This document shows positions 1,734-24,027 of a stretch of 38,718 bases of DNA, one piece after another. The position numbers and the translations under genes were made by a program. A model generated the notes under the pieces. The model was not told where the DNA came from. It saw only the letters and a list, made by a program, of their open reading frames with translations, and did not search any database. The first letter of the stretch is position 1. The number at the start of each line of letters is the position of its first letter. This DNA is from an uncultured Pseudomonadota bacterium (GTDB lineage Bacteria > SAR324 > NAC60-12), in contig CAJWCD010000012.1 of NCBI GenBank assembly GCA_913020725.1, forward strand, positions 1-38,718, written 5' to 3'.

Positions 1734-1894
1734 AAAAATTCCAAGTTTCAGACAAACTCAATTGATTCTTCTCTGCAACTTTAACCAATTGCTCGTGTAT
1801 ATGCTACCTCAGGTAAATGGAGGATTTCTTTCTCTTCCATCCTCTCTCTGTTGTATACCAACTCATTGTTGTCCTCCTTTGTCCTTTATGTTCC

Positions 1895-3230: not shown

Positions 3231-3286
3231 GAAATTAGTATCTTCTAAAAGATTATGAGTTTAACTTTGGATATTAATTTGTTGTA

Positions 3287-3660: not shown

Positions 3661-3922
3661 CGTTCTGTCCCAATCCTTTGCGAGCTCTCAGGTTGATCCC
3701 AAGAATCTCACTCAGGGATTTCAATCTGTATCTGTCATCGGTCTTTCGTCTTGGTGGGAGTTTTCTCAAAGTCTCCCGAAAATTCCTCCCATGTCTTTGT
3801 CCCAATTCGGAAATCGGTCTGTCTCCCACGACTTCAAGGAACAGATTAAGTGAAATCTCATATTCCTCCAAAGTCTTCTCCTTCACTCGTCCCATTTCTC
3901 TAAGAGTTTTTCGTGCTGTCAT
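3650..3922 (-). pseudogene. Tyrosine integrase remnant (core-binding domain)
   Basis: KTLEEYEISLNLFLEVVGDRPISEL...FRETLRKLPPRR resembles integrase core-binding domains. There is an in-frame TAG just upstream and no catalytic domain. It lies about 265 bp from the tRNA 3' end. Confidence 0.6.
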
Positions 3923-4186
3923 GAATTCCTCAAACTACTTGATTTCAAGGAAATTTGAAACCCTGACTGTCCGAAGTGAGTCCTAAGATTTTTAGGGATG
4001 TAAGACCTAAAAAGGTAGGATGATGAATTACTTTTTTGAAAAACGAGACATGATTTGAACGACATGGGATTCCAACCAAATAATAGATTTTGAAATCCCC
4101 AAACTCATACTCAAACAGTAAGTGTTCAGTCTGTCAATAGGTGTTGGGAGGTGTTCATCTCCCTAAGTCATTGATATTAAATGACC

Positions 4187-4285
4187 TGGCGGAAGTGTGT
4201 GGGAATCGAACCCACCTGCGACAGGATTAGTGCCGCACGCACGGTTTTGAAGACCGGGGCGCCCACCAGTGACGCATCCACCTCC
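4187..4285 (-). tRNA. selC: tRNA-Sec (anticodon UCA)
   Basis: Minus strand GGAGGTGG...CGGT CTTCAAA ACCG...long variable arm TGCGGCA/TGTCGCA...GTGGG TTCGATT CCCAC ACACTTCC GCCA. 99 nt, G discriminator, encoded CCA. Confidence 0.95.
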
Positions 4286-4297
4286 GGGAATTGAGGC

Positions 4298-4326
4298 AGT
4301 CTGGCGCAAAGCCGGAGAAGAGTCCA
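4298..4326 (-). promoter_or_regulatory. Possible sigma70 promoter for selC
   Basis: TGGACT-N17-CAGACT ending 12 nt upstream of the tRNA 5' end. Confidence 0.3.
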
Positions 4327-4406
4327 GTCGCCGAATTTGTGTCGCGGGTTGCTCGGAAATGCGGGATACTGGAGGAAGCAATACCGTTTCCATTTTTTAA
4401 GCCGTC

Positions 4407-5455: not shown

Positions 5456-5530
5456 GGGCTCGTAGCTCAGTGGGAGAGCGCCTGCCTCACACGCAGGAAG
5501 TCGCTGGTTCGAACCCAGCCGGGCCCACCA
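5456..5530 (+). tRNA. tRNA-Val (anticodon CAC)
   Basis: GGGCTCG TAGCTCAGTGGGAGAGC G CCTGC CTCACAC GCAGG AAGTC GCTGG TTCGAAC CCAGC CGGGCCC ACCA. Canonical cloverleaf with CCA. Confidence 0.96.
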
Positions 5531-7005: not shown

Positions 7006-7799
7006 AACTTCAAGTTCGCGGGGTCGAAACCTTTGCCACTACGGGAGGGCGTCCGTTTGTCCCTGAGCAGCCCACCATAGTCTTTGTCCACGGTGCCGGG
7101 ATGAATCGCATTGTGTGGTATCTCCAGACGCGCTACTTCGCCCACCACGGACACGCAGTGCTCGCAGTAGACCTTCCTGGACACGGGAGATCGCAAGGCA
7201 CGTTGCTGGGCAGCGTTCAGGAACTGGCGGACTGGATTCCGGATTTGCTGGATTCGGCAGGGGTGGCCAAGGCCACACTGGTTGGACATTCGATGGGGTC
7301 GCTGATCGCACTGGAAAGCGGGGCACGGCATCCGGATCGCGTGAGCAAGCTCGCCTTACTGGGCGCGGCTTCAAAAATGCCCGTGCATCCGGATTTGTTG
7401 GAGGCCGCCAATGCGGACGATCCTTTGGCCTATGATCTGATGATGGATTGGGGCACGGGGCCGGTGGGGCATTTCGGCAGACATCCGGTGCCGGGAATCT
7501 CTCTGATTTCCGGAGGTCGGAACCTGTTGCGGATGGAGAATTCCGGCGTGCTGGGAAATGACCTTGGACTCTGCAATGACTACCAGAGCGGGATGGAGTC
7601 CGCCACGAAAGTGAGCTGCCCAACGCTGGTGGTTGCAGGGGAGGTGGACCGGATGACTCCGGTCAAGCAGGGACTCAAACTCTGCGGAGCGATTTCTGGA
7701 GCAGAAAGTCAGGTGATCGCCAAAGCAGGGCACCTGATGATGATCGAACACTCCGGTGAAACCCTTGCCACTCTGAAGGGTTTTCTCCAGGCGGGCTGA
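7002..7799 (+). CDS. Alpha/beta fold hydrolase
   Basis: FVHGAG, DLPGHGRS, GHSMG nucleophile elbow and AGH catalytic His. ATGA overlap with metY and a GGAGG RBS. Confidence 0.9.
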   Translation: MKLQVRGVETFATTGGRPFVPEQPTIVFVHGAGMNRIVWYLQTRYFAHHGHAVLAVDLPGHGRSQGTLLGSVQELADWIPDLLDSAGVAKATLVGHSMGSLIALESGARHPDRVSKLALLGAASKMPVHPDLLEAANADDPLAYDLMMDWGTGPVGHFGRHPVPGISLISGGRNLLRMENSGVLGNDLGLCNDYQSGMESATKVSCPTLVVAGEVDRMTPVKQGLKLCGAISGAESQVIAKAGHLMMIEHSGETLATLKGFLQAG

Positions 7800-8125
7800 C
7801 TGAAAAAGTCGCAATCGACTCCGAAAATAACAGCGGTCTTTTGGCGCAAAAATTAAATTTTTAGTAAAAATGCCCCAAGGGGTGGGGTATTAGACTCGAA
7901 TATTCTCAATAAATAGTTGATATTATTGTAAATTTTTCAATGCGAGCCATTGATCTGTTCGCCGTGATCGATCGCCTAGTCGGTGTTCCTTTCCGATGCA
8001 TGCACAGGGTTTTTGTGGGAATATAGGCTAAAAACTCTGCATTTGAACACCTCAAAATCAGACAAACACATTGATTTATTTGATGAAAATAACTTCCCCC
8101 CCGAGTCGATTGCGACTTTTCCCAG
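7800..8125. mobile_element. MITE-like non-coding element with terminal inverted repeats
   Basis: Perfect 18-bp inverted repeat AAAAGTCGCAATCGACTC (7804-7821) / GAGTCGATTGCGACTTTT (8103-8120) around an AT-rich, ORF-less interior. Confidence 0.65.
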
Positions 8126-8143
8126 CATGTTCGAAAAAAAATG

Positions 8144-8171
8144 TTGACTCGAGCTAACTGATCATTACAAT
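8144..8171 (+). promoter_or_regulatory. Sigma70 promoter for the flotillin-amide ABC operon
   Basis: TTGACT-N16-TACAAT about 80 nt upstream of the ATG at 8252, followed by TAAGGAG. Confidence 0.55.
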
Positions 8172-8251
8172 ACTCTTGCTCGGTAGATCTGGTGGTTCAG
8201 ATCTTTCTAATGTACCGAAAATCGTGAACTAATAAGGAGTTTCGTCTGCTT

Positions 8252-9835
8252 ATGTATTGGGTCTGGTTGATCGCATTGGGTATTGCCATAATTGTGGTAA
8301 TTGTCCTACTAAACCGCTTTTATCGTAAAGCATCCCGTGAAGTTGCTCTGATCCGAACAGGGCTTGGCGGGCAGAAAATCATTATAGATGGGGGTTTTCT
8401 TGTTCTCCCATTTCTTCACCGTATTTCAGAAGTCAACATGAAAACGACGCGACTTGAAGTTGTTCGCGCCAATGAGAATTCGGTAATCACAGGAGATCGT
8501 CTGCGTGTAGACGTGACGGTCGAGTACTATGTGCGGGTCGATCCAAGTGACACAGGTGTCGCGACAGCAGCTCAGACCTTAGCAGGTAAAACCTTTCACT
8601 CAGATGACCTTGCTGAGACCTTGGAAGGAAAACTGGTTGATGCGTCCTTATCTGTTGCTGCCAACTACACCATGGACGAACTCCAAAACGAGCGCGGTCG
8701 GTACGTTACTCAGATCGAGGAAATTTTGAAGCCAAAGCTGTCTCAAAACGGCCTCCTATTGGAATCAGTTTCATTGACACGATTGGACCAAACACCTTTC
8801 CACACGCTCGATGAAAATAACGCATTTAACGCAGTTGGGCTTCGACGATTAGCTGAGATTGTTTCAAATAGTAAGAAAGAACGTGCTGTAATTGAGGCTG
8901 ATACGGACGTTGCAGTGCGTAAGAGTAAGCTTGCCGCCACGAAGCAGCGCCTGAATATTGAGCAGGAAGAGGAGGAGGCCCAAATACAGCAAAGGCTGAG
9001 CATTGAAAGAGAGCGTGCTGCGAGTGATGCCGCGATAGCAGAAGAGCAGTCCGGCTCTGAGCAGCGTAGAGAGATTGCAAGAATAGAAAAAGAAAAGGAG
9101 GTTAAGACAATAGAGATTCAAACTGCACGGGAAATCCGAAAGGCTGAACTGGAAGCTGCACAGTCATCTGAATTGAGACGACTTGAAAGGGAGATTGCGA
9201 TTGCTGAACAATTGGCAGAGGTGGCAAAGGCTCAGGTCAGGGTAGAAGCAGCAAAAGCAGAAGAGGTTTTGGCAAAAGAGAACACTGTGAGAACCAAGGA
9301 TGTTGCGGTCGCTGAACGTGAACGGGAGTTGGCGGTGATCCGTGCCTGTGAGCAAGCTGAGGTCGATGAGACTCGAGTTGGCAGTGAGACGGGCACTCTG
9401 CTTTCAATGGCAAAAGCTGAAGCCGATGCAATAATGACCCGAGCCGAAGCTACACGGGCCGAGTTGATGGCGAGGGCAGAGGGTGAAACGGCCTTGATTG
9501 CTTCGGAAAACAGTCAAAGTGATGATCTCATCGACATGAAATTGCAAATGCGTAAGCTGAAGATCTTGCCTGACATCGTTGAAAGCATGGTGAAACCTGC
9601 TGAAAAAATCGACAGCATTCGGATCAATCACATTACGGGGTTTGGTCAATCCGCAGGAGGTGGAGGCCAAGACGGCGGCGGGGACAAGGCAGTTGTCAAC
9701 CAGATCATGGACGGAATTCTTTCAATGGCACTGCAATTACCCGCAGTAAAGAAACTCGGCGAGGAAATTGGTGTCAATATCGGTGATGGAATCAAGGGCA
9801 TCTCTGATGAGATGTTGAAGCCTTCAGATAAATAG
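8252..9835 (+). CDS. Flotillin family (SPFH/band 7) membrane protein, YqiK-like
   Basis: N-terminal TM helix, RTGLGG, ITGDRLRVDV..YYVRV SPFH domain, DENNAFNAVG, an Ala/Glu-rich coiled coil and C-terminal VKPAEKIDSIRI. Confidence 0.92.
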   Translation: MYWVWLIALGIAIIVVIVLLNRFYRKASREVALIRTGLGGQKIIIDGGFLVLPFLHRISEVNMKTTRLEVVRANENSVITGDRLRVDVTVEYYVRVDPSDTGVATAAQTLAGKTFHSDDLAETLEGKLVDASLSVAANYTMDELQNERGRYVTQIEEILKPKLSQNGLLLESVSLTRLDQTPFHTLDENNAFNAVGLRRLAEIVSNSKKERAVIEADTDVAVRKSKLAATKQRLNIEQEEEEAQIQQRLSIERERAASDAAIAEEQSGSEQRREIARIEKEKEVKTIEIQTAREIRKAELEAAQSSELRRLEREIAIAEQLAEVAKAQVRVEAAKAEEVLAKENTVRTKDVAVAERERELAVIRACEQAEVDETRVGSETGTLLSMAKAEADAIMTRAEATRAELMARAEGETALIASENSQSDDLIDMKLQMRKLKILPDIVESMVKPAEKIDSIRINHITGFGQSAGGGGQDGGGDKAVVNQIMDGILSMALQLPAVKKLGEEIGVNIGDGIKGISDEMLKPSDK

Positions 9836-9954
9836 GTCGTAGAGCTTTCCTCTAAGATCAAGTGTTGTTTAGGCAAGCACCCTGAAACAACGCTGAGTAT
9901 CACAGCGGTTCTTTTGTAGGGGTCGTTGAAATTTTAACCAAAGGAGATCGAGTC

Positions 9955-11208
9955 ATGAAAATCAATCGAAGAAAATTTTTGAAGAGTGCCTCAGCAACTG
10001 CTGCAGTAATGGCGGCTCCTGCGTTTATCAGCCAGACGCAGGCAGCAAACTCACTGAAAATGGCTGTCATTCTTGATCAAAGCGGAGGTCTTGATATCTA
10101 TGGCCGTCCAATGGTCGATGCAAGCCATTTGGCAATCGAGGAGATCAATGCGGCGGGTGGGTTGCTGGGCAAACAGGTGGAACTCACAGTCTATGACCCT
10201 CAATCGACTATTCAGTTTTATACCCAGTACGCCACGAAAGCTGCTACTAGTGACCGAGTGGACGTGGTTCAGGCTGGAATCACGTCGGCATCACGCGAGT
10301 CAATCAGACCGTTATTGAATCGATACCGAACCCTCTATTTCTACAACACTCTGTACGAAGGAGGTGTATGCGATACCAATAATTATTGCACGGGGTCAAC
10401 TCCAGGTCAGACAGTAGAAAAACTTGTGCCCTATGCAATGAGAAAATGGGGCAAAAAGGTTTACATTATCGCTGCTGATTACAACTACGGCCATATTACA
10501 GCTAGCTGGGTTCAGAAATATGTCCGTGACAATGGTGGTGATCCTGTAGAAACGGAGTTCTTTCCGCTGGATGTCACTAACTTTGGGCCGACCATCAAAA
10601 AGATTCAGGCGGCAAAGCCAGACATGGTCATGTCTGCGTTGGTCGGCGGTGCTCATGTGTCGTTTTACCGTCAGTACGCTGCTGCTGGTATGAATAAGAG
10701 TGTGCCGGTTGCGTCTACTACCTTCGGTGTTGGCAATGAGCACAAGATGATTTCAGCCGAAGAAGGCGATGGAATGATCGTTGCCTACAGCTACTTTCAG
10801 GAAATCGAATCTGCGGATAATAAAGCGTTTGTAAAGCGGTTCCAGGATCGATTCGGAACGGATGCTCCGTACCTCAACGAACTCGCTGCACGTCAGTATG
10901 AGGGCATCTACCTTTGGGCAGAAGCTGTTAAAGCTGCCGGGACTGCTGATCGAATGAAGGTTATTGAGGCGCTTGATGCACCGACGAGCATTAACGGGCC
11001 TAGCGGTAAACTCACAATTGACCCCCAGACCCACCATGCTGTCCAGAATGTTTACTTGGCTGAACTGATGGACCAAAGATTCAACATCATTCAGACCCAC
11101 GAACAACAACAGCCGACAGATACCCAACTGGTTTGTGATCTTGTTGCCAATCCAAACCAATCGACCTTCTATTTTGAGAATGGCTTGAAGGCTGCTGGTA
11201 TCGAATAA
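9955..11208 (+). CDS. Urea/short-chain amide-type ABC substrate-binding protein (UrtA/FmdD/AmiC-like), Tat-exported
   Basis: Tat signal NRRKFLK, EEINAAGGLLG, GITSASRESIRP, YFYNTLYEGG and AADYNYG. GGAG RBS. Confidence 0.88.
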   Translation: MKINRRKFLKSASATAAVMAAPAFISQTQAANSLKMAVILDQSGGLDIYGRPMVDASHLAIEEINAAGGLLGKQVELTVYDPQSTIQFYTQYATKAATSDRVDVVQAGITSASRESIRPLLNRYRTLYFYNTLYEGGVCDTNNYCTGSTPGQTVEKLVPYAMRKWGKKVYIIAADYNYGHITASWVQKYVRDNGGDPVETEFFPLDVTNFGPTIKKIQAAKPDMVMSALVGGAHVSFYRQYAAAGMNKSVPVASTTFGVGNEHKMISAEEGDGMIVAYSYFQEIESADNKAFVKRFQDRFGTDAPYLNELAARQYEGIYLWAEAVKAAGTADRMKVIEALDAPTSINGPSGKLTIDPQTHHAVQNVYLAELMDQRFNIIQTHEQQQPTDTQLVCDLVANPNQSTFYFENGLKAAGIE

Positions 11209-11245
11209 ATTCAGTCTGTCGTTGATACTTGTTCGGAGACCGATA

Positions 11246-12115
11246 TTGGATCTCTTTGCATCCCTTGGGCTACAGATCATCTACGGCATTGCCAACCTGG
11301 TACTAATCAGTATCGGGTTGGCCGTGATTTTCGGGATGATGCGAGTGATCAATCTTGCCCACGGTGAATTCCTCATGCTAGGCGGGTACACGGTGATCGT
11401 GTCTACGAACAACGGTGTGAACATCTGGGTTGCGATGTTCATACTGGCTCCATTAATCGTAGGCATTATCGGTCTGATTGTTGAGTGGACACTAATTCGG
11501 TTTTTGTACGGCCGCATGGTCGATACACTGCTCGCAACTTGGGGACTTAGCCTATTTCTTATTGGACTCATTACGACTATATTTGGAGCGCAAACAGAAA
11601 CAACAATTGCGCCTCCTTTTGGGCCAATTTTTATCGGTGAGTACAGTTCGAGTGGTTACGAGTTGTTTCTTATAATTATTACCATCCTCCTAGTCATTTT
11701 GTTATACCTGCTATTGCGATACACCAAGTTGGGTCTGCTTGCCCGCGGAACTATGCAGTCCGCAGACATGGCGGCTGCGCTGGGCATTAGCACACAGCGC
11801 ATCTACTCGACGACCTTTGGGATCGGAGCGGCTTTATCGGGCTTTGCTGGTGGCCTGCTTGCCCCAGTCACGGGTGTATTGCCGACCATAGGAGCGGTCT
11901 ATATAGGCAAGGCATTTATTACCGTCATTTCAGGTGGCACGGCCATCCTTGCTGGAACATCGTCAGCATCATTCCTGCTTGGTGGTATAAACGGCATCGT
12001 TAGTTTTGTCGTAGGCCCAACAATGGGTGAAGTGGCGCTTCTTCTGTTCGCAATTGTCTTATTGCGATTGATGCCACGGGGCATTACTGGTCATTTCTTC
12101 AAACGAAGTCTGTGA
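11246..12115 (+). CDS. HAAT-family ABC permease (LivH/UrtB-like)
   Basis: GLAVIFGMMRVINLAHGEFLMLG and DTLLATWGLSL. The TTG at 11246 follows GGAG (the track start is 11222). Confidence 0.9.
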   Translation: MDLFASLGLQIIYGIANLVLISIGLAVIFGMMRVINLAHGEFLMLGGYTVIVSTNNGVNIWVAMFILAPLIVGIIGLIVEWTLIRFLYGRMVDTLLATWGLSLFLIGLITTIFGAQTETTIAPPFGPIFIGEYSSSGYELFLIIITILLVILLYLLLRYTKLGLLARGTMQSADMAAALGISTQRIYSTTFGIGAALSGFAGGLLAPVTGVLPTIGAVYIGKAFITVISGGTAILAGTSSASFLLGGINGIVSFVVGPTMGEVALLLFAIVLLRLMPRGITGHFFKRSL

Positions 12116-13173
12116 AGCGATCTCAGGAAACTAACGCCCTCATCTTGATCGGGATAATTGGGTTAGTCACTCTTTTTGGAGTGCCACTAACTCTTGATCT
12201 TTATTCAGTGATTAGTCTGACTACTGCGGTCAGTCTTGCCATACTTGCCCTCAGTCTCGGTTTAATCTGGGGCTTCGGAGGAATCCTCTGTTTTGGACAG
12301 ACAGTGTTTTTTGGCATCGGTGGATATGCCTATGCAATCGCAGCACTGAATTTAGGAGGCAGTGCGATTGCTATTATTGTGGCGGTACTCGTTGCTGCGG
12401 CAGCGGCAGTTTTTTTGGGTTACTTTATGTTTTACGGACGCCTAAGCGACGTATACCTTGCAGTCATCACTCTGACAGTCACCCTCATTCTCTACAGTGT
12501 AATCAGGCGAACATCTGGCCCAGAATATAAGATTGGTATTGCTAAAATTGGAGGATTTAACGGCATCAATGTGCCACCAATTAATTATCCTTGGGATGTA
12601 AACAAATTTTTGTACCCTGAAGACTTTTTCTACGTCGCCATGGTTGCTTTACTCGTTACTTATTTTTTGTGTGTGTGGTTGACAAAAACGCATTTTGGGC
12701 GAGTGTCTGAATCAATCCGCGAAAATGAGGTGCGGACAGAGCTTTTGGGGTATGACGTTCGAATTTACAAACTATGTATGTTCACCATTGGTGGTGCCAT
12801 CGCTGGACTTGCTGGGACTATGTTTGCGAATTCAATTGGGCGTATTACTCCCGATGTCTTTAACCTTTATAACGCCGCCCTGACAATCATCTGGGTCATC
12901 ATTGGAGGCCGTGGAACCCTGATAGGGCCCGTTCTTGGTGCATTGATTTTCTTTTACATTACTTCTTTACTTGGCCAGCAAAATGTTGTGAATATTAATT
13001 TATTCCTTGGGTTAGTGCTGATTATTTTTGTGCTAGTCGTGCCTAAAGGTATCGTTCCTTCGCTGGTACAGATCTGGGTCAGAAGGCGATCTCGCAGGTT
13101 GACGACGCACTCCGCTCGAAGAATGAGACGTCGCGGGCGATCCCGAGTCACAGAGGTTGCCGTTGAGGAATAA
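12112..13173 (+). CDS. HAAT-family ABC permease (LivM/UrtC-like)
   Basis: LIWGFGGILCFGQTVFFGIGGY, IRENEVRTELLGYD and WVIIGGRGTLIGP. Confidence 0.9.
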   Translation: MKRSQETNALILIGIIGLVTLFGVPLTLDLYSVISLTTAVSLAILALSLGLIWGFGGILCFGQTVFFGIGGYAYAIAALNLGGSAIAIIVAVLVAAAAAVFLGYFMFYGRLSDVYLAVITLTVTLILYSVIRRTSGPEYKIGIAKIGGFNGINVPPINYPWDVNKFLYPEDFFYVAMVALLVTYFLCVWLTKTHFGRVSESIRENEVRTELLGYDVRIYKLCMFTIGGAIAGLAGTMFANSIGRITPDVFNLYNAALTIIWVIIGGRGTLIGPVLGALIFFYITSLLGQQNVVNINLFLGLVLIIFVLVVPKGIVPSLVQIWVRRRSRRLTTHSARRMRRRGRSRVTEVAVEE

Positions 13174-13888
13174 CGTGGTACTCGAAACCCGGGCGTTATC
13201 AATGCATTTTGGGGGGGTGGTTGCGGTTGATCGGGTGGACTTTTCCCTCCGGGAAAACGAATTACGTTGTTTGATTGGTCCCAATGGTGCCGGTAAGAGT
13301 ACATTTTTTAAATGCCTCTCTGCCCAGTTGCGCCCTACGGCTGGTGACGTTGTTATCCGGGATTTTAATGTCACCGAGAGCGAGACACACCAAGTAGCCC
13401 GAATGGGAGTCGGTATCAAGACACAGGTGCCTAATGTGTTTGACGGACTGGATGTCGAAGAAAATATCTGGCTGTCAGCCAGCCAGTCAACCAGCATAAA
13501 GCGTGCTCGTGTCATAACTTCAGAGGTCATTGAGCGGCTTCAGTTAGGTAGCGTACGGAAAGCGCAGCTTGGAGCATTGGCACATGGTCAGCGGCAGTTG
13601 GTGGAACTCGGAATGGTTCTTGCCGGTGAACCATGGCTGGTGATTTTGGATGAGCCCACTGCGGGAATGACGCAGGACGAGGTTGTTCGTACAGCCGAGA
13701 TCATCCAAGAAATAAATAAAAGCGCGACTATGATCGTTGTTGAACACGATATGCAATTTATTCGAATGATCGCGCAAAAAGTCACGGTGTTTCATCAGGG
13801 GCGGATTCTGATCGAAGGTGATATGGACGAGGTGTCATCCGATGAAAGGGTCCGTGAGGTTTATCTCGGCCATCGCAGACCCCAATGA
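13157..13888 (+). CDS. ABC ATP-binding protein (LivG/UrtD-like)
   Basis: Walker A GPNGAGKST, LAHGQRQ signature, LDEPTAG Walker B and VEHDM. Confidence 0.92.
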   Translation: MPLRNNVVLETRALSMHFGGVVAVDRVDFSLRENELRCLIGPNGAGKSTFFKCLSAQLRPTAGDVVIRDFNVTESETHQVARMGVGIKTQVPNVFDGLDVEENIWLSASQSTSIKRARVITSEVIERLQLGSVRKAQLGALAHGQRQLVELGMVLAGEPWLVILDEPTAGMTQDEVVRTAEIIQEINKSATMIVVEHDMQFIRMIAQKVTVFHQGRILIEGDMDEVSSDERVREVYLGHRRPQ

Positions 13889-16227
13889 GTGACGCATTTA
13901 TCCTTAATGTTCGTGATTTGCACGCAGGCTACGGTCGTGTTCCCGTACTGCATGGGGTTGACCTCTCTGTCAAAGAAGGTCAGATCGTTGGGGTTTTGGG
14001 CCACAACGGCATGGGCAAGACCACACTGCTGAAGACGTTGATGGGAATTCTCCCGGTTACCTCCGGTCGGATACAGTTTGACGGAATGGATATTTCTCAT
14101 GAACCGACGCATGAACGCTCACGGCTTGGGATCGGGTATGTGCCGCAGGGTCGTGGAATATTTCCTCAGTTATCGGTCTACGACAATTTGAGAATGGGAG
14201 TCGTGGAGCATGGCGAGGACGAAAACGAAGCCATTGAATCCGTGTTGCAGGAGTTTCCACAGCTTCAACCCCTCTTGGATCGCTCAGGAGGTGCTCTGAG
14301 TGGAGGCGAACAGCAGATTCTGGCGTTGGCACGCTGCCTGATCAGCAAACCGGACTTGGTGCTCTTGGATGAGCCTACAGAAGGAATTCAACCTTCTATT
14401 GTCGATGGCATCATTGAACTGCTAAAACGACTCAACACAGAGCAGGGACTCACGGTCGTTCTGGTTGAACAGAATTTGGAATTCATCACATCCTTGTCCG
14501 ACCGTGTATTACTGTTGCAGAAAGGTTATATCACGGGTGAAGTGGGTGACGGTCAGTCGTCAGACTCAGAACTTATTGAAGGATTCGTGGGTTTTGGATC
14601 CGGCTCATCAGCACCTGTTCGTACAAATCACGCTGAACCACCTAGAGCAACTCCACCTGAAGCAACTCCATCTCAAACGATGGAAATACAACACAAACAA
14701 AGGTTTGACTATATGAGTGTCAAGAGACCTACCCATGATCAGTTGAAGCAGATCACCTTAGATTTGGGAATGCACCTGTCTGATGAACGGACCGCCGAGT
14801 TCTTGGATGTCATGGAAGATACGATGAAAGTCTATGACTTAATCGACACCATGCCCGACTATCTACCAAAGGTAGATTACCCAAGAACACCAGGTTATCG
14901 ACCACCACCAGAAGAAAACCCGCTAAACGCTTGGTACATAAAATGTGAGGTAAAAGGTGCCCTACGTGGACCACTCACTGGAAAATCCATTGTATTAAAA
15001 GACAATATCAGCCTAGCTGGTGTGCCGATGATGAATGGTGCATCGACTCTTGAGGGATATATACCGGATATTGATGCTACTGTCGTCACACGAATTCTGG
15101 ATGCAGGTGGCATTATCGCTGGAAAAGCACACTGTGAATATTTTTGCCTTTCAGGAGGGAGTCACACCAACGCTACGGGACCTTGCCACAACCCTCATAA
15201 GATGGGTTATTCGGCTGGAGGTTCCTCTTCAGGACCCGGCGCGCTGGTCGGTGCTGGTGAAATCGATATGGCCATAGGCGGAGATCAGGGTGGTTCAATC
15301 CGCATGCCTGCTTCCTACAGTGGTTGTTACGGATTGAAACCTACCCATGGATTGGTGCCTTATACAGGCGTTATGCCCATCGAGACCACTATTGACCACA
15401 TCGGACCCATGACGCAGAATGTCGCAGATAACGCGCTTCTGCTTGAGGTGATTGCTGGACAAGATGGTCTTGACCCTCGGCAGTATGCACCCAAAGTAGA
15501 TCATTACACATCTGCCTTGGGTCGCGGGGTTCGCAGTCTGAAAATAGGGGTAGTACAGGAAGGATTCGGACGTCCGGAATCAGAGTCGGATGTTGATGCT
15601 AAGGTGCGCACAGCCTCTGACAAGTTTCGTGAGTTGGGTGCAAATGTGGAAGATATTTCGATTCCCATGCACAACGAAGGCGCAGCTATCTGGACTCCAA
15701 TTGCACTCGAAGGTCTGACTAATCAGATGATGAATGGAAACGGATTTGGTACAGGCTGGAAAGGTCTCTATTCGACAAGCCTGCTGGACCATCATTCAAA
15801 CTGGCGGAACCGAGCCGACGAGTTATCTGACACGCTGAAGGTCTGTATGTTCATTGGGGAATATTTTCTCCGGCACTACCGTGGTCATTTTTACGCAAAG
15901 GCTCAGAACCTCAGTCGAAAACTAAAAAAGACCTATGACGATTTTCTCGATCAGTATGATCTTCTGTTAATGCCGACACTTCCGATGAAAGCAACGCCAC
16001 TGCCTCCGCGAGACGCGCCGCTTGCACTCTATTGCCAAAGGGCATTTGAGATGCTTGGTAATACCTCTCCATTCGATGTAACAGGGCATCCAGCGATGTC
16101 GATCCCTTGCGGGATGAGTGAAGGTCTGCCGGTAGGAATGATGCTGATTAGTCGCGACTACGGCGAATCTACGATCTATCAGGCAGCGCATGCCTTCGAG
16201 CAACTAGAAAACTGGAAACAAATGTAG
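13885..16227 (+). CDS. Fusion of an ABC ATPase (LivF/UrtE-like) and an amidase-signature family amidase
   Basis: aa 1-~237 contain [23 protein letters not shown] and VEQN, followed by a Pro/Ser linker. From M277 (14713) the amidase has VLKDN, CEYFC, GGSSSG and GGDQGGSIR (Lys-cisSer-Ser triad). Confidence 0.9.
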
Positions 16228-16228
16228 A

Positions 16229-17989
16229 TTGGTTACTGATAAAAAGTATCAACGTATGGTTGTAGTTAAGACTGGTTTGGAATCTTCTAATTTGAGTCTA
16301 GGGTCGAAGCTTGCCCATGTCAAAGGTGCATCGTACCCCGATCTGGAAGAGATCACGATCCCAGATTTCTTTGCACGTACTGTATCCCGTTATCCAAACC
16401 GGGAGGCCTGTGTTTTTAAAAAATCCGGTGAATGCTGGACGTGGCTTGAATTGGCTCGAAAAATCGATCAACTATCAGCAGGGCTACTTGCCTTGGGCAT
16501 CTACAAAGGGGAGCGGGTTGGGATCCTGTCACCCAACAGGCCAGAATGGGTGCTTACTCAGTTCGCTACGGCTCGCATCGGTGCAATCCTCGTCAATATC
16601 AACCCAGCTTACCAGCGGGCGGAGTTAGAATATGCTTTGGTTAAAGTCGGTGTTAAGGCTCTGATAACTGCGGAGTCATTCAAGTCAAGCGGATACCTCA
16701 AGATGTTGGTCGACCTTGCACCTGAACTCTCCAAAAGCAGACCGGGACGGCTGGCTGCGGCCAAGTTTCCACTGCTCAAATCCGTCATTCAGACCGGTGA
16801 TGCTCATGTCCAAGGCATGTTCAGATTTGTGGATGTGATGGCGAAGGGAGGCAGTGGACAGCAAGCACGTTTAGACGCCATTGGGCGTAAGTTGTTTGTC
16901 GATGAACCGATTAATCTACAGTTCACTTCAGGGACGACTGGCTCGCCTAAGGCTGCCACGTTGACTCACAGAAATGTCGTGAATAATTCGCGTTATGTCG
17001 CCAAGTGCATGAATCTTTCTCAAAAAGATAGACTTTGTATTCCGGTACCTCTTTATCACTGCTTCGGTATGGTACTCGGAAACCTGACTTGTGTCGCTGC
17101 CGGAAGTACCATGGTTTTTCCAGGCGAAGGGTTTGATGCCCTACAAACACTGGAAACTCTGGATAAGGAGCGTTGTACCGCTGTCCATGGTGTGCCGACC
17201 ATGTTCAGTGCCATGGTGAATTGCCCTGAATTTTCTCAATTTGACTTACAGAAACTCAGAACTGGGATCATGGCGGGTGCTCCCTGCCCAATTGAACTCA
17301 TGACTCAGGTGGTATCAAAGATGAACCTTAGACAAATGACGATTGCTTACGGCATGACCGAGACCAGTCCCGTGTCGTTCCAGAGCGCTGTAAACGATCC
17401 GATCGAACGTCGAGTATCGACAGTTGGAAGAATCCAACCGCATGTGGAAGCTAGGGTCGTGGATACATCAGGTGAGATTGTTGCCGTTGGGGAACAAGGC
17501 GAACTGCATACCAGAGGTTACCATGTGATGCGTGGATACTGGGATGATCCAGAGCGCACTGCCGTGTCAATCGACGCTGAAGGATGGATGCATACCGGGG
17601 ATCTTGCGAGTATTGATGCCGAAGGCTATTGCAACATCGTTGGTCGGGTAAAAGATATGCTGATTCGGGGTGGCGAAAATGTTTATCCAAGGGAGATCGA
17701 GGAGTTTCTCCTAGGACATCCTGAAGTTCAGGATGTCCAGATTTTTGGGGTTCCGGATGAGAAATACGGTGAGGAAATTTGTGCTTGGATCGTCCCAGTT
17801 TCAGGGACTCAACTATCGCTAGAAAATATCCGAAACTACTGTGAAGGGCAGATTGCACACTACAAAATACCCCGGTACGCAAAAATGGTCCCAGAATTTC
17901 CAATGACTGTGACAGGTAAGCCTCAAAAATATGTCATGCGTGAAAAGATGATCGAAGAATTGAAATTGACTGAGATGGCTACAGCCTAG
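16229..17989 (+). CDS. AMP-dependent acyl-CoA synthetase (ACSF2/YngI-like)
   Basis: [48 protein letters not shown] and [10 protein letters not shown]. The start could be the ATG at 16256. Confidence 0.92.
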
Positions 17990-18031
17990 AAGCCTGTTGA
18001 CAATCAGCTAAAAAGTACAGAAACGAGTGTT

Positions 18032-18080
18032 GTCATTCCCAAAACGGGAATCCAGCGGCTGTTTGCTTCTGGGTTCCGGC
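18032..18080. repeat. Degenerate REP-like palindromic element / possible bidirectional terminator
   Basis: GTCATTCCC-AAAAC-GGGAATCCAG...CTGGGTTCC resembles GTCATTCCCGCG...GGGAATCCAG-type REP repeats. It lies between convergent genes. Confidence 0.5.
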
Positions 18081-18141: not shown

Positions 18142-19464
18142 TTACTTGCCGACAGCGGCCTTCGCCTCTTGCTGGCTTTTGCGCTTGGCCTCGATGAGCC
18201 GCAGTTTGTCCTCAAGGTTCTCGCGCTTCATCATGCAGTTGCGGGCTTTTTCGGAAAGCCCCTGATCCATGTAGAGATGCTCTAGCAAGCTGAGCAGCAG
18301 CACCATCTGCCGCGCTCGCTCCAGTGGTTGCACCCGTGCTTGCTTGAGGGCGGCAAGTCCGAGCAGGGCGTGCTTGGTTGCTAGCTTGGTTTCATCCCGG
18401 TGCGAGAGGTTGAAGGCGATTTGGTACTGGGCGCGGTGTCGGTTTCCAAAACGTGGCCTTGTGCAAGCCTGCATGTAGAGCCAGTTCGCTTGGCGGATCA
18501 GTGAGTTTAGCGTCTTGCGGATAGCCACGGGACTTTTGCCCGTGAGCGGCAGAAGCGGCCGTTCGGGGTAGCGGAAGTTGTAGCGGTGGACGAAGGACTG
18601 GAGCTTGCCCATGTCCTTGATCGTGTCCCGCTCCGGCTCGCCGAGGACAACTTTTGCGTAGAAGTCGATCATGCGCTGCATCACCATCGCTTGCCGGAAC
18701 AGCAATTCACCATGTTGCGCCTGATGCACTTGGGGCTGCAACTCCTGAAGGATGCGGATGAACTCCAGCATCTGGATAAACGCCTCATAGTAGCGGTGCC
18801 CCTGAAGATAGAGCCGGATGATGCGCTCGCGGGAGATGAGGTCTTGGGGATTCTTCTTTTCCACCAGAACCTTGCCCATTTCCCGTTGCACATCTCGCTC
18901 AATGTAAAATGCTGCCCGATTCATGAAGGCCGTTGCCTTGAACACGGTGGTGCAAAGCGCAGCGGAGGTGAGATTCAGCCGGTCTGGGGAAACCTCAATC
19001 GCCATTGATGCGAAATCGAGTGCCTGATAGAGTAGGAAACGCTGACGCTCAAGGTTGCTCTGCTCCATTGCTGCGGCTTCAAGCAGGACACGGCCAATCA
19101 CCTCCAAGCAGTTCGGCCCATGCTCTGGCAGCTTCAGGTAGAGAATCATGGCTTCATGGAGCATCCGGGTCATCTCCACCACCGAAGGGTTTTTGTTCTG
19201 GAGCAGATCCGTGACATGTGCAACCGAGGCGTGTTCGCGGCGGCTGAAGAAGCGGTGCTGGCGCTTGCGGTCCCAGTCCAGCACCTTTTGGGTGATTGGC
19301 TTGCCCTGAGCGTCGAAAGCGAACTCAAAGCAGGTGTTGACTCCGGGGCGTGGAGTGGGCCGAGGCGGCGGAGCGTCCTGCGGCTCTTCCGGAACAGAAG
19401 AGGCAGATGGCTCCCCGGCAATGCGGTCGGCGAGGGACTCGACGTGTTGTTCGAGCAGGGACAT
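18142..19464 (-). CDS. Hypothetical all-helical protein (440 aa)
   Basis: Long ORF with host-like GC-rich codons and an amphipathic helical composition. No family recognised. Confidence 0.75.
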   Translation of the reverse strand: MSLLEQHVESLADRIAGEPSASSVPEEPQDAPPPRPTPRPGVNTCFEFAFDAQGKPITQKVLDWDRKRQHRFFSRREHASVAHVTDLLQNKNPSVVEMTRMLHEAMILYLKLPEHGPNCLEVIGRVLLEAAAMEQSNLERQRFLLYQALDFASMAIEVSPDRLNLTSAALCTTVFKATAFMNRAAFYIERDVQREMGKVLVEKKNPQDLISRERIIRLYLQGHRYYEAFIQMLEFIRILQELQPQVHQAQHGELLFRQAMVMQRMIDFYAKVVLGEPERDTIKDMGKLQSFVHRYNFRYPERPLLPLTGKSPVAIRKTLNSLIRQANWLYMQACTRPRFGNRHRAQYQIAFNLSHRDETKLATKHALLGLAALKQARVQPLERARQMVLLLSLLEHLYMDQGLSEKARNCMMKRENLEDKLRLIEAKRKSQQEAKAAVGK

Positions 19465-19960: not shown

Positions 19961-20208
19961 GTGGCCGTTAAGTGGGATTCGCTCTGGGGTGCTTTGATGC
20001 GTCCACAGAGTCCGGATTTATGAAAATGGGTCGCATTTTGAGACTCCACATCCTTCTCGTCCTAAAAACTGCTCGACTGTGCAAGTGAACCGGGAAACAC
20101 GGCGACGGGGTTTCGCCATGAGAAAGGTTGGGCTTGCACCAGCAGCGTGACTCCCAAAATCCAGGATTTTCTTGTGAGGCGTTTGAACCTCTCATCGAAC
20201 CAACTGTT

Positions 20209-20964
20209 ATGATCCGTTCTCGATTCAGCCCTCTTGCTCTGCCGTTTCTGGTAGTGGCCACTGTTCTGCTGCTGTGCGTGTCCGTCACGCCGGCTTGGGC
20301 AAACCCCAAGCTGATCGAGCAACCAATCGCGTTCAGCCACAAGCTGCACGTCTCCCAGAATGGGATCGCGTGTCAGTACTGCCACCTCTACGCCCGGCGT
20401 TCGTTTTCCGCAGGCGTTCCTCCGGTCAGCACCTGTGTGGGTTGCCACGGTAGCAACGAGATGAAGATCGTCGCTCCGGACAGCGCCGAGGTGAACAAGA
20501 TGCGCGACTACTGGGCACAGAGCGAGCCGATCCCTTGGGCCAAGATACATGACATTCCGGATTTTGTGCGCTTCCCTCACAAAAAACACATCAATGCAGA
20601 AAGCAGCCGCTTTGTGGATGAAGCTGGACAAGGTTGCGACCTAGACAAGGCGCCACGTTCGCTGGAATGCCGACTCTCCCTGTTCCGAGCTGGAGGCGAC
20701 CAACGTTGTCAGGCCTGCCACGGAGCAATTCCCCAGATGGAGGTGGTTTACAAGGTTGACGACAATTTTGGAAGCATGGGCTGGTGCCTCGAATGCCACC
20801 TCCAAGTTGACGGGGCCGTGGAACGCAAACGGGCCGGAAGCACCTTAGCTGGATGGTTCCATGCTAAAGAGAATGATGCCAAACGCGAAGCCGCCGCGCA
20901 ACTTGTGAGCGACAAGGGGTACCACAACTCCAACCTGAGTGACTGCGTCACTTGCCACTACTGA
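20209..20964 (+). CDS. actA: Alternative complex III pentaheme cytochrome c subunit
   Basis: EQPIAFSHKLH, five CxxCH motifs (CQYCH, CVGCH, CQACH, CLECH, CVTCH), IPWAKIHDIPDFVRFPHKKH and SMGWC. Likely start is the ATG at 20209. Confidence 0.9.
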   Translation: MIRSRFSPLALPFLVVATVLLLCVSVTPAWANPKLIEQPIAFSHKLHVSQNGIACQYCHLYARRSFSAGVPPVSTCVGCHGSNEMKIVAPDSAEVNKMRDYWAQSEPIPWAKIHDIPDFVRFPHKKHINAESSRFVDEAGQGCDLDKAPRSLECRLSLFRAGGDQRCQACHGAIPQMEVVYKVDDNFGSMGWCLECHLQVDGAVERKRAGSTLAGWFHAKENDAKREAAAQLVSDKGYHNSNLSDCVTCHY

Positions 20965-20995
20965 CCAAAACACCCGGAAGTTTTAGGAGATACGC

Positions 20996-23986
20996 ATGAA
21001 AAAAGGGCTGAGTCGGCGAAACCTGTTCAAGTACATGGGACTCGGCGGGGTCACTGCCGTTGCCGCAGGTTGCGAGCAGAAGCCAGAAAAGCTGATCCCC
21101 ATGTTGGTTCCGCCCAATGACTTCGAGTACACCCCGCAGACCGCGTACCAGTACATGACCACCTGCCGCGAGTGCGAAGCGCGTTGCGGTATGATGGTGA
21201 CGGTGCGGGAAAACCGGGCGCAAAAGGCGGAGGGCAATCCGCTGCACCCCCTCAACAACGGGGCGCTGTGCGCACGGGGTCAGGCCTCGATGCAGAACCT
21301 CTACAACCCTGAGCGCGTTGCCCAACCCGGAAGTGGCCGTGGCGATGCTCGTAAATCGGTTTCGTGGGAAGACGCCCTCAAGCAGTTCGTCAACAAGGTT
21401 CGCAGTGCTAACGGCAAAGTCGTGTACCTCGGCAAGCCCACCTCCGGAAGTGAAGGTCGTTTTCTGGACGAGTGGCTGAAGTCTGTGGGTGGGGGCAGTC
21501 GCATCGAGTTCAGCCTGCTGAATCAGAACGCCCAGCGTGAAGCGAACCGCCTCGCCTTTGGTCGCAGCGACCTTCCGGAACTGTACTTTGAGGAAGCGAA
21601 ATTGCTGCTCAACTTCAGCAGTGATTTTCTGGAAACGTGGGGCAACCCTGTCGAGCAGGCACGGCGTTTCACGGACATGCACGCCTACGAGGGCAAGGAT
21701 CGCCACCGCTTCATCCACATCGGCCCACACATTTCGCTGACCGGTGCCAAGGCTGACCGCTGGTTGCAAATCCAACCGGGGTCTGAAGCCCTTGTCGCAC
21801 TTGCGATTGCTTCGGTGATCCGGGCAAAGCAAGGCAGCCACGCTTGGTTGGCATCCTACCTCGGCAATTACAGCCCTGCAAAAGTTGCAGACGCCACCGG
21901 AGTTTCCGCTGAGAAAATCACGGAACTCGCAGAGGATGTGATGGAACACAGCCCCAGTCTCGCGCTGGGGGGCAGCAGCATTGCCGCGACAAAGGACGGA
22001 CTGGCGCTGCACAATGCCGTCAACATCCTCAACACCGTCGCGGGCAACCTCAACAAAACTGTTCGCTTCAACCGTACTTCCGGATCAGTGCCCAGTTCGC
22101 ACGGCGATGTGGTTGCGCTGATCAACGAACTCAACGCTGGCAAGGTCAAGCTGCTCATCGTGGACGACAGCAACCCGGCCTACGCGCTTCCAGCCTCATT
22201 TGGGTTTGCAGCAGCAGCAGAAAAGACGTTTGTCGTCAGCCTCTCCTCGTTGCAGAGCGAGACGGAACACGCTGCCGACCTTGTGCTTCCAGCCCTCACG
22301 GCTTACGAAACGTGGGGCGACGCCACGCCGCGTCCGGGCCTTTACAGCATCCAACAGCCCGTGATGGCTCCGGTCAACACCTTTGACGCCCGCGGGCGCG
22401 AAGATGTGCTGATCGCTACCGCCCAGCAGGTCAACCCGCAGGCGTTTCCTGATTTGGCAAGCTATCTGGATTACCTCCGGAACGCTTGGCAGGACGTGCA
22501 GCAGGCGGTCGGCGATTCCCAAAATTTCGAGAACTTTTGGATTTCGGCCTTGGAGTCCGGAGGCGTGTTCCAGTCCTCGCGTTCGTCTCAGGTCAACCTC
22601 AGGCGGCGAGTCACCCAAGTGCAAACCTCGGCTCCAAACGTTGGCGGTTCCGGATTGGTGTTGTTGCCCTCCCCCTCCCTGTTTATGGGAGACGGAAGTG
22701 GGGCCAACAAGCCGTGGTTGCAGGAAACTCCCAATCCGATCAGCCAGATCGTTTGGGATTCGTGGGTGGAGATCAACCCGGACACGGCCCAGAAGCTGGG
22801 CATCACCGACCGCGAGTTGGTCACGGTCAAGACACCTCAAGGAGAAATTCAGGGCACTGCTTACTTCCACTTTGGCATCCACCGCGATGCCATCGCCATC
22901 CCGCTGGGGCAAGGGCACCAGCACTCCGGGAAGGCCGCAAACGACTACGGTGTCAACGTGCTGGACCTGCTTCCGGCCACACTGGACGCCGCCGGAAGCG
23001 TGGCGTTCGTCAGCACACGGGCCGAGATCACTGGAACCGGAGAGCGCACCTACACCGTCAACACGGACGGCAATGCTCGACAGCTTGGGCGCGACATTGC
23101 GGCTGCGACCACGGAAAAGGAACTGCATAACGGCAAACACCACGAGGCGGGGCACCGTCCGCAGGAGATCGTCGAATTCTACCCGGATCGTGCCGAAACC
23201 GCTGGCTACTACAAGCCCTACCGCTGGGGGATGACGATTGACCTCGACCGCTGCAACGGCTGCTCGGCTTGTGTGGTCGCGTGTTATTCGGAGAACAACC
23301 TTCCGGTGGTGGGCAAGGAGCGCATGGCGCTTGGGCGGGAGATGTCATGGTTGCGCATGGAACGCTACATCGAGGGCTACGGGGATGATTTTGAAACTCG
23401 AATGGTTCCAATGCTCTGCCAACAGTGCGGCAACGCCGGCTGTGAGGTGGTCTGCCCAGTCTATGCGACCTACCACAATCCGGAAGGGATCAACGCGATG
23501 ATCTACAATCGTTGCGTGGGGACTCGTTATTGCTCAAACAACTGCGCGTACAAGGTCCGGCGCTTTAACTGGTTTAACTACGATTTCCCTGCTCCTCTGG
23601 ATCAGCAACTGAACTCGTCCATCACCACCCGCGATGTTGGAGTGATGGAGAAGTGCAACTTCTGCATGGGGCGCATCATGGATGCAAAGTATCAAGCGCA
23701 GGAGCTTGGGCGCGATGTCCAAGACGGCGAGTTGGTGAGCGCATGTCAGCAAACATGCCCGACACAGGCGATCACGTTTGGGAACCTCATGGACCCGGAG
23801 AGCAAAGTCTCGAAACTAGCCATGCGCGACGAGCAAGAAAAGCGAGACCGCCAGTATGAGGTCATGCCCGAACTCAACTACAAGCCTGCCATCACCTACC
23901 TCAAGAAGGTGAACACACGGGAAGTGCAGGGGCTGCACGGCGGGAACAAGGGCAGCGAACACAACGGCGACGAAAGTCACTCATAA
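20996..23986 (+). CDS. actB: Alternative complex III molybdopterin-oxidoreductase-like / Fe-S fusion subunit
   Basis: Tat signal SRRNLFK with AAGC, EGNPLHP, ANKPWLQETP, WGMTIDLDRCNGCSACVVAC, CQQCGNAGC, RCVGTRYCSNNC and MEKCNFC. Confidence 0.92.
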   Translation: MKKGLSRRNLFKYMGLGGVTAVAAGCEQKPEKLIPMLVPPNDFEYTPQTAYQYMTTCRECEARCGMMVTVRENRAQKAEGNPLHPLNNGALCARGQASMQNLYNPERVAQPGSGRGDARKSVSWEDALKQFVNKVRSANGKVVYLGKPTSGSEGRFLDEWLKSVGGGSRIEFSLLNQNAQREANRLAFGRSDLPELYFEEAKLLLNFSSDFLETWGNPVEQARRFTDMHAYEGKDRHRFIHIGPHISLTGAKADRWLQIQPGSEALVALAIASVIRAKQGSHAWLASYLGNYSPAKVADATGVSAEKITELAEDVMEHSPSLALGGSSIAATKDGLALHNAVNILNTVAGNLNKTVRFNRTSGSVPSSHGDVVALINELNAGKVKLLIVDDSNPAYALPASFGFAAAAEKTFVVSLSSLQSETEHAADLVLPALTAYETWGDATPRPGLYSIQQPVMAPVNTFDARGREDVLIATAQQVNPQAFPDLASYLDYLRNAWQDVQQAVGDSQNFENFWISALESGGVFQSSRSSQVNLRRRVTQVQTSAPNVGGSGLVLLPSPSLFMGDGSGANKPWLQETPNPISQIVWDSWVEINPDTAQKLGITDRELVTVKTPQGEIQGTAYFHFGIHRDAIAIPLGQGHQHSGKAANDYGVNVLDLLPATLDAAGSVAFVSTRAEITGTGERTYTVNTDGNARQLGRDIAAATTEKELHNGKHHEAGHRPQEIVEFYPDRAETAGYYKPYRWGMTIDLDRCNGCSACVVACYSENNLPVVGKERMALGREMSWLRMERYIEGYGDDFETRMVPMLCQQCGNAGCEVVCPVYATYHNPEGINAMIYNRCVGTRYCSNNCAYKVRRFNWFNYDFPAPLDQQLNSSITTRDVGVMEKCNFCMGRIMDAKYQAQELGRDVQDGELVSACQQTCPTQAITFGNLMDPESKVSKLAMRDEQEKRDRQYEVMPELNYKPAITYLKKVNTREVQGLHGGNKGSEHNGDESHS

Positions 23987-24027
23987 TCTGACTCCATGAG
24001 ATACCTTAGGCAGAGAGGAGAACCATT

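Follow-up and report, generated by a model that had tools for sequence, protein, structure and literature searches.

What does a flotillin do at the head of an operon that appears to be built around the uptake of amides? This question is raised by a contig of 38,718 nucleotides (CAJWCD010000012.1 in assembly GCA_913020725.1) from an uncultured bacterium of the SAR324 lineage; in the following, the window means this whole stretch of DNA. Seven genes on its + strand, from a flotillin gene through a gene for an acyl-CoA ligase, form the block at window positions 8252-17989 which we call the cassette. The original prediction read this block as a complete line for import, hydrolysis and activation of a dissolved amide with its own dedicated flotillin. 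The seven co-oriented genes which it described are all found as + strand open reading frames (ORFs) at the same positions, and every one of them contains the Pfam domains expected from its proposed identity. The reading at which we arrive, and to which we give a probability of roughly 60%, is that a horizontally acquired cassette imports a small aliphatic carboxamide other than urea, hydrolyses it by an amidase at the transporter and forms an acyl-CoA from the product, and that the flotillin acts in this same process. The import-hydrolyse-activate reading is in this way supported: the tests of synteny and of a substrate other than urea came out in its favour, while the question of transcription was answered only in part.

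Linkage of the flotillin to the cassette

The flotillin gene (8252..9835, +) codes for 527 amino acids (aa) with a predicted N-terminal membrane anchor, an SPFH domain, an Ala/Glu-rich middle and a Flot C-terminal domain. The Pfam matches are Flot PF15975 (2.8e-36, 124.8 bits against a cut-off of 27, residues 387-508) and Band_7 PF01145 (1.7e-15, 57.9 bits against a cut-off of 23.6, residues 32-181). Hydrophobic residues 3-21 are followed by R22, R25, K26 and R29, and by the positive-inside rule the bulk of the protein is predicted to be cytoplasmic (N-out/C-in), on the same side of the membrane as the ATPase-amidase and the ligase. Among the four SPFH genes of the genome it is the only one of the flotillin type.

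The order of anchor, SPFH domain, Ala/Glu-rich region and Flot domain is that of the canonical flotillins (YqiK, FloT/YuaG). Prokaryotic flotillins (SPFH2) have been described together with NfeD/YuaF partners, as stated in the part of that work dealing with the group (PMC2636767). The flotillin of the window differs from the canonical ones in that it has no NfeD-like partner, heads a catabolic transport operon and is inherited with this operon. No NfeD, YuaF or YqiJ partner gene was found beside it, and the 452-nt gap in front of it (7799-8252) contains no + strand ORF of at least 80 aa. In annotated cassettes from other organisms the gene before the flotillin codes for a substrate-binding-domain protein. 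Cassette flotillins lack the YqiJ/OB-fold partner of their canonical relatives; flotillins which have this partner (39-46% identity) are found on plasmids of Paracoccus denitrificans, Phaeobacter and Thioclava.

The original prediction made its reading depend on whether flotillin and ligase stay with the transporter in other genomes, and this was followed up with two scans. One was seeded with the flotillin: its alignment alone was compared with metagenomes, and the 80 best loci, with 47-100% flotillin identity, were inspected (one of them, L094, is identical to the window). The binding-protein gene comes next in 61/61 loci with at least 700 nt downstream, an amidase lies downstream in 27/27 loci with at least 6.5 kb, and a ligase in 24/24 loci with at least 8.3 kb. 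In L136, L145 and L170 the ligase is only 40-43% identical to that of the window, against 55-75% elsewhere, and in these loci another ligase may have replaced the original one. The other scan was seeded with the ATPase-amidase fusion gene and covered the best 80 of 597 candidate loci in a genome collection, loci being counted when they showed the fused gene and both of its sides. The full order flotillin, binding protein, permeases, ATPase, fusion and ligase was present in six (L011, L013, L014, L017, L022 and L023; flotillin identity 36-82%), neither flotillin nor ligase in six others (L018, L019, L024, L027, L029 and L033), and no locus had only one of the two. The synteny that was claimed is borne out by both scans, and what the flotillin accompanies is the version of the system with a ligase, not importer and amidase as such.

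Flotillins were also searched for in 88 genomes of the phylum to which the window belongs. Those of G028 and G042 (46-47% identity) head full cassettes, and in G043 the contig stops just past the flotillin; three further genomes have flotillins of 35-37% identity with no cassette within the retrieved stretches. In a quick flotillin tree seven non-cassette flotillins form one well-supported group and 44 cassette flotillins make up the remainder. The flotillin and amidase trees contain the same three subgroups, and the amidase tree places the clusters which lack flotillin and ligase, together with unfused amidases, in one supported group of 14. The dN/dS values of the flotillin are 0.04-0.15 in nine pairs of relatives (0.01-0.21 for the other cassette genes), and the flotillin is under purifying selection. 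The trees and the selection fit a single origin of the layout with both flotillin and ligase, followed by long joint inheritance under selection.

The predicted substrate and its proposed route through the cassette

A spacer of 119 nt separates the flotillin gene from the gene for a periplasmic substrate-binding protein which is of the UrtA/FmdD/AmiC kind and has a twin-arginine leader, RRKFLK (9955..11208, +; Peripla_BP_6 2.8e-82, Peripla_BP_5 6.8e-82). Thereafter follow, all on the + strand, a UrtB-like permease (11222..12115; BPD_transp_2 6.1e-30), a UrtC-like permease (12112..13173; BPD_transp_2 3.8e-40), a UrtD-like ABC ATPase (13157..13888; ABC_tran 4e-27), the ATPase-amidase fusion (13885..16227) and the ACSF2-like acyl-CoA ligase (16229..17989); by these coordinates neighbouring genes overlap or adjoin, starting with the first permease, as had been claimed. 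An Urt family is the best NCBIfam match for all five transporter parts, and each of them scores under the equivalog cut-off. The binding protein obtains 371 bits with TIGR03669 (cut-off 495) and 244 with the UrtA model TIGR03407 (cut-off 493); the other scores are 206 against 250 for UrtB (TIGR03409), 182 against 296 for UrtC (TIGR03408), 252 against 304 for UrtD (TIGR03411) and 268 against 286 for UrtE (TIGR03410, residues 7-229 of the fusion).

The binding protein was aligned to the chain of PDB 8HIC, UrtA from Prochlorococcus marinus MIT9313, after matching the numbering of the paper (offset 23). In its description of the binding site, that paper names nine pocket residues, of which Ser122, Gln144, Tyr190 and Asn246 hydrogen-bond urea; W120A abolishes urea binding, and mutation of Asn246 and Trp120 is described as weakening or abolishing it (PMC10392092). 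Trp120, Ser122, Tyr141, Gln144, Glu146, Tyr190, Phe192, Asn246 and Ser274 of UrtA correspond to Ile109, Ser111, Tyr130, Leu133, Glu135, Tyr176, Tyr178, Val230 and Gly258 in the protein of the window, so that the pocket reads I-S-Y-L-E-Y-Y-V-G against W-S-Y-Q-E-Y-F-N-S. Judged by this published set of residues, the cassette protein keeps Ser122, Tyr141, Glu146 and Tyr190, but has Ile, Leu, Val and Gly for Trp120, Gln144, Asn246 and Ser274. The pocket keeps its contacts for the carbonyl oxygen and one nitrogen; the positions that hold the other nitrogen are aliphatic, as would be expected if an alkyl group takes the place of one NH2 of urea. Among 85 binding proteins of the compared loci, 62 have the pocket ISYLEYYVG and 16 have ISYQEYYVG; Ile for Trp120 and Val for Asn246 occur in 84-85/85, the Gly is near-universal and Gln144 is kept in a minority. 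The acetamide sensor AmiC also has Val at the position of Asn246. A carboxamide is the predicted ligand of this pocket and urea an unlikely one.

The claim that the substrate is probably not urea holds up well: the Urt scores are under their cut-offs, three residues for urea binding, as far as the account of UrtA names them, are aliphatic, and a urease alpha subunit (PF00449) gave no match in the whole 93.3%-complete genome, in which urea carboxylase was not searched for. Neither a urease nor a nitrile hydratase gene was found in the window, in agreement with the original prediction. Elsewhere in the genome, on contig C10 (6151-7474; L208), there is a nitrile hydratase alpha gene with a short beta-N-terminal gene and no adjoining amidase; if this enzyme is active, its amide product would need an amidase from elsewhere.

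The fusion is one frame of 780 aa in which Pfam finds ABC_tran at residues 22-165 and Amidase at 356-764. Residues 1-235 (13885..14589) are the UrtE-like ABC ATPase domain, with intact motifs (Walker A GHNGMGKT at 39-46, signature LSGGEQQ at 138-144, Walker B at 158-163). Residues 236-276 (14590..14712) are a Pro/Ser/Thr-rich linker of about 40 residues, poorly conserved across 26 aligned fusions. Residues 277-780 (14713..16227) are an amidase-signature domain of the Rhodococcus N-771 type, which scores 809.1 bits with NF005565 (PRK07235; cut-off 545, residues 277-779); models for allophanate hydrolase and AtzE, with cut-offs of 426-511, give only 139-180 bits. Among solved structures PDB 3A1K is the closest to residues 291-775 (E 5.3e-137). 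The Lys-cisSer-Ser triad is present as Lys372, Ser447 and Ser471, invariant in 26/26 aligned fusions, and we take it to correspond to Lys96, Ser171 and Ser195 of 3A1K (offset 276). The triad and an N-terminal extension are shared with the amidase of Rhodococcus sp. N-771 (PDB 3A1K/3A1I), which partners nitrile hydratase. The Rhodococcus enzyme is free-standing and cytoplasmic, whereas that of the cassette is tethered to an ABC ATPase by the 40-residue Pro-rich linker. The fusion is the only Rhodococcus-type amidase that was noticed in the genome of the window.

The ligase may start at TTG 16229, two bases past the amidase stop, or at ATG 16256; the latter start gives 577 aa and matches the protein on record. 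Both AMP-binding Pfam domains are present (AMP-binding 8.8e-92, AMP-binding_C 5.9e-17), and the score with NF009233 (PRK12583, ACSF2-like) is 826.1 bits, just below the cut-off of 832. The names which its relatives carry in their sources are generic, "AMP-binding protein" or "fatty-acyl-CoA synthase", but their neighbours say more. Relatives of 57-61% identity adjoin enoyl-CoA hydratases. On a plasmid of Leisingera caerulea (L215, 3714-14662) a 57%-identical ligase follows genes for a quinohemoprotein amine dehydrogenase and an aldehyde dehydrogenase, where the family would serve the breakdown of primary amines; in the cassette of L022 the genes that come after the ligase are of the acyl-CoA dehydrogenase and the methylcrotonyl-CoA-carboxylase-like kind. 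This gene context points to short, medium or branched aliphatic acids, and for the cassette as a whole we infer a short or medium, possibly branched, alkyl amide as the class of substrate.

The model we propose has four steps, each suggested by the family of the protein concerned. The binding protein, exported by the Tat route, would capture a small carboxamide, which the Urt/Fmd-type ABC importer would bring into the cell. The amidase tethered to the second ATPase subunit would hydrolyse the amide where it leaves the transporter, and the ACSF2-like ligase would fix the released acid as acyl-CoA. Hydrolysis would in this way be coupled to import, and the carbon would be recovered through the ligase.

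Several known systems resemble parts of this line. The cassette has the five-part layout of UrtABCDE, a binding protein with two permeases and two ATPases, but its UrtE-like subunit bears an amidase of 500 residues, its operon adds a flotillin and a ligase, and its genome gave no urease alpha match. FmdDEF of Methylophilus methylotrophus is an Urt-type importer beside an amide hydrolase. The homology of the binding protein to AmiC (PDB 1PEA, E 1.4e-26) links the cassette to amiEBCRS of Pseudomonas aeruginosa, and variant cassettes carry an extra AmiC-like Peripla_BP_6 gene with MarR before the flotillin; in the window, on the other hand, an AmiC-like sensor, AmiR and an amidase of the AmiE type are all absent. 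AmiC and AmiR act as sensor and antiterminator in the control of the ami operon. Urt-like transporters beside formamidase or AmiE genes, read as amide importers, are reported for blr0968-0973 of Bradyrhizobium japonicum (PMC3098086) and fmdA-urtABCDE of Pseudomonas (PMC13209695), and the adjoining of importer and amide hydrolase is what the cassette shares with them. In the portions of these two papers which deal with the clusters the hydrolase is encoded on its own, as FmdA/AmdA or as AmiE of the nitrilase superfamily, and neither a flotillin nor a ligase is mentioned, while the cassette has both, and an amidase-signature enzyme fused to the ATPase. A literature search found no paper on a flotillin together with an amide ABC importer, in keeping with the earlier statement that no characterised system of this layout was known; nor did it find one on the fused ATPase-amidase or on PDB 8TG1, the solved structure closest to the binding protein. 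The word amidase in one flotillin paper turned out to refer to a peptidoglycan amidase.

Transcription, origin and distribution of the cassette

A single sigma70-like promoter had been proposed for all seven genes. The site itself exists: TTGACT-16-TACAAT at 8144..8171 (+), 80 nt before the flotillin ATG, matches 10/12 positions of the consensus. Promoter-like sites occur in the region at chance level (13 found against 12.3 expected from shuffles), and a TTGACT hexamer stands about 110-135 nt before the flotillin ATG in 9/9 close relatives that were aligned. That it is the only promoter is not borne out by the RNA data, in which contigs of the binding-protein gene start separately.

Parts of the window are contained in 24 RNA runs from 23 studies, mostly seawater metatranscriptomes. 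The contigs of eight of these runs were compared with the window, to which they are mostly at least 99% alike; bins without coverage were not used as evidence. Contigs of the eight runs cover all seven genes and in 5/8 runs bridge the flotillin stop. In every one of the eight the binding-protein gene lies on a separate and deeper contig (about 5-21) than the flotillin gene (about 0-6), and the claim of co-transcription stands in part. The binding-protein contigs start at 9639, 9720, 9763, 9793, 9801, 9850 and 9863 in seven runs, and in one run the earliest piece listed begins at 9945. A single sharp RNA 5' end was considered: 9850 and 9863 carry adapter letters in two runs, but four more gave 9763, 9793, 9801 and 9945, and the idea was dropped. 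The spacer between flotillin and binding protein contains a weak hairpin with 5 pairs, of which 4 are G-C, and behind it a T-rich run (9891..9907, +). The deep contigs of six runs have their ends at 11223-11541; close by, within the first part of the UrtB-like permease gene, is a hairpin of 14 pairs with a T-rich tail (11291..11322, +), and there is here a hint that the hairpin could be an attenuator which keeps the binding-protein messenger in excess. Contigs of four runs end at 17991-18058, just past the ligase stop. Taken together the RNA agrees with read-through from the flotillin gene and with a second start or a processing site, itself likely, that raises the level of binding-protein messenger.

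The cassette is horizontally acquired, as its base composition and its absence from the same-genus genomes tell. Its GC content is 48.5% against 56.8% for the genome; per 1 kb it is 0.44-0.51 inside the block and 0.55-0.60 on both flanks, which confirms the low GC that had been pointed out. Among 41 related genomes the full-length fusion occurs only in the window's own genome and in G028, which is of the same order and another family, and both fusion and flotillin are absent from the two same-genus genomes (92% and 89% complete). In a quick amidase tree the copy of the window groups with marine metagenome copies, a metagenome-assembled genome of Acidiferrobacteraceae and Rhodobacterales, and G028 and G042, from the window genome's own order, group with soil-type copies instead. 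Marks of the insertion were not found: neither edge of the block carries a tRNA gene (the window's two lie at 4187-4285 and 5456-5530), a search for direct repeats flanking it gave none, and a Pfam scan of 20 ORFs on the flanks brought up no integrase.

The fusion is carried by more than 120 protein clusters and, where these are named by the source, is called only "amidase". In cultured roseobacters the cassette is carried on plasmids. Sulfitobacter sp. THAF37 (plasmid pTHAF37_e) has the order MarR, substrate-binding-domain protein, flotillin, binding protein, two permeases, ATPase, an "amidase" of 794 aa and AMP-binding protein, and the mobilizable plasmid pSMR1-3 of Pseudosulfitobacter pseudonitzschiae (strain SMR1) also bears the cassette; the RefSeq names of the genes are generic. 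Aquibium sp. ELW1220 is a further cultured carrier. Within the family of the window's genome one complete genome (G008, G017) has at least six unfused amidase paralogues of 53-60% identity. Two of the unfused paralogues there have in-frame TAA stops and one is truncated.

Some other features of the window were recorded. A perfect 18-nt inverted repeat (7804-7821 and 8103-8120) encloses a 317-nt AT-rich stretch, single-copy in the genome, which sits between the upstream alpha/beta-hydrolase gene and the promoter-like site of the cassette. Convergent with the ligase gene is an ORF of 440 aa (18142-19464, - strand) with no Pfam family, which is covered by contigs of the RNA libraries. A second region of low GC (0.31-0.41) at 1-4400, with a cadherin-like repeat protein, a YgjP-like metallopeptidase and an EamA transporter, ends beside tRNA-SeC (4187-4285), with tRNA-Val at 5456-5530; it looks like another foreign insert. 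At 20128-27959 lies an alternative-complex-III-like cluster with a multihaem cytochrome bearing an MtrC/MtrF-like domain, a 996-aa molybdopterin and 4Fe-4S protein, an NrfD-like membrane protein and ActD, and with two ORFs (426 and 363 aa) that match no Pfam family.

The role of the flotillin

We favour an organising or enclosing role of the flotillin in the ligase-bearing version of the system. The NfeD-less flotillin would work from the cytoplasmic side of the membrane together with the enzymes, in our preferred view as an oligomer which holds or encloses the importer-amidase and the ligase, so that the membrane-permeant acid would be captured as acyl-CoA before it escapes. A precedent is HflK/HflC with FtsH, an SPFH assembly with a defined client; it faces the periplasm, and its client is a protease encoded outside catabolic operons. 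Our proposal would likewise make the cassette flotillin an SPFH oligomer devoted to one membrane protein complex, but one that is predicted to face the cytoplasm and is encoded in a catabolic operon. A complex prediction with the ligase and flotillin residues 27-410, both given as alignments, returned a score of 0.00 and speaks neither for nor against binding. The model can be carried further to a flotillin cage on the cytoplasmic face around importer, tethered amidase and ligase, a membrane-attached reaction chamber trapping the acid, and ammonia with it, until the acid is fixed as acyl-CoA; this we regard as speculative and rather improbable.

A number of observations weigh against the favoured role. 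The six fused importer-amidase clusters without flotillin and ligase make the flotillin dispensable for import and hydrolysis, and the binding pocket, being the same in clusters with and without the two genes, does not explain why some clusters carry them. In 8/8 runs the binding-protein RNA segment starts 3' of most of the flotillin gene, which may thus be regulated apart; DNA may moreover be present in RNA libraries, and contigs cannot prove single transcripts. Likeness in sequence does not by itself mark a cassette clade, since NfeD-partnered flotillins of 46% identity exist and the flotillin of G026 (45% identity) lies between SDR and glyoxalase genes. The monophyly of the cassette flotillins depends on the root: they are a clade only if it is placed on the branch to the non-cassette group. 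The loci are related, so the linkage counts are not independent events. Finally, flotillin-linked loci have additional genes upstream, an isochorismatase-family hydrolase in 10, a second amidase in 8, and MarR with a second binding-domain protein in 8; with such hydrolases and second amidases more complex substrates, urea-derived or other, are possible.

How far do these points favour other explanations? The line of import, hydrolysis and activation could be real and the flotillin a stress or fluidity factor that shields the membrane from an amphiphilic substrate or from free fatty acid released by the amidase, and not a scaffold. On this view the flotillin would go along with the ligase because both genes deal with the free acid; joint gain and loss of the two, the existence of importer-amidase clusters lacking both and the RNA segment apart from most of the flotillin gene all agree with it, and involvement of bacterial SPFH proteins in membrane stress is indicated by titles and abstracts (PMC8581546, PMC11222466). 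The small pocket with its urea-like outline suggests short amides, however, whose acids perturb membranes weakly, and a general protector need neither lose its NfeD partner nor hold a fixed position at the head of the operon in 61/61 loci, and we find such a role unlikely. The flotillin may also be a passenger, an ancestral gene in front of the operon, kept for its promoter or a general function and with no tie to amides. That close canonical flotillins serve unrelated contexts would suit this, as would trees that fit one origin and joint inheritance, by which the linked loci may represent few events. But purifying selection on the flotillin is as strong as on the enzymes, flotillins with identities down to 36-38% are still linked to the cassette, in marine, soil and plasmid copies alike and even after transfer into another phylum-level lineage, where the flotillin is the only one of the recipient genome, and the partner gene typical of free-standing flotillins is lost; a passenger is in our opinion decidedly improbable.

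The remaining alternative concerns the substrate: the transporter would carry urea or a derivative such as biuret, allophanate or a ureide, on which the amidase acts, and the ligase would be unrelated to the amide carbon. All five transporter parts do have Urt families as their best matches, Gln144 is kept in 16/85 binding proteins, and the isochorismatase-family hydrolases mentioned above point the same way. The isochorismatase family includes biuret hydrolase. On the other side stand the Urt scores, every one of them under its cut-off, and an amidase of the Rhodococcus aliphatic/aromatic type that matches NF005565 far better than the allophanate hydrolase or AtzE models; the Val and Ile at Asn246 and Trp120 affect positions whose mutants, in the account of UrtA, bind urea poorly or not at all (PMC10392092). 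The retention of the ligase in 24/24 loci is sensible only if a carboxylic acid is produced, and this alternative we hold to be very improbable indeed.

The function and the clients of bacterial flotillins are a long-standing open question; usually these proteins occur alone with an NfeD partner, and their phenotypes are pleiotropic. The cassette flotillins are a group hard-wired to one operon with a clear biochemical read-out, which gives them a predicted and testable client, and with the cassette present in cultured, plasmid-bearing roseobacters the role of the flotillin can be tested directly. Should the cage exist, the cassette flotillin would become the first of the bacterial flotillins to have a client defined by genetics and to take part in metabolic channelling. 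The fusion of ATPase and amidase represents a form of catabolism coupled to transport that is widely distributed. The presence of the cassette in the seawater RNA libraries of many studies points to an as yet unnamed amide as a source of nitrogen and carbon in the ocean.

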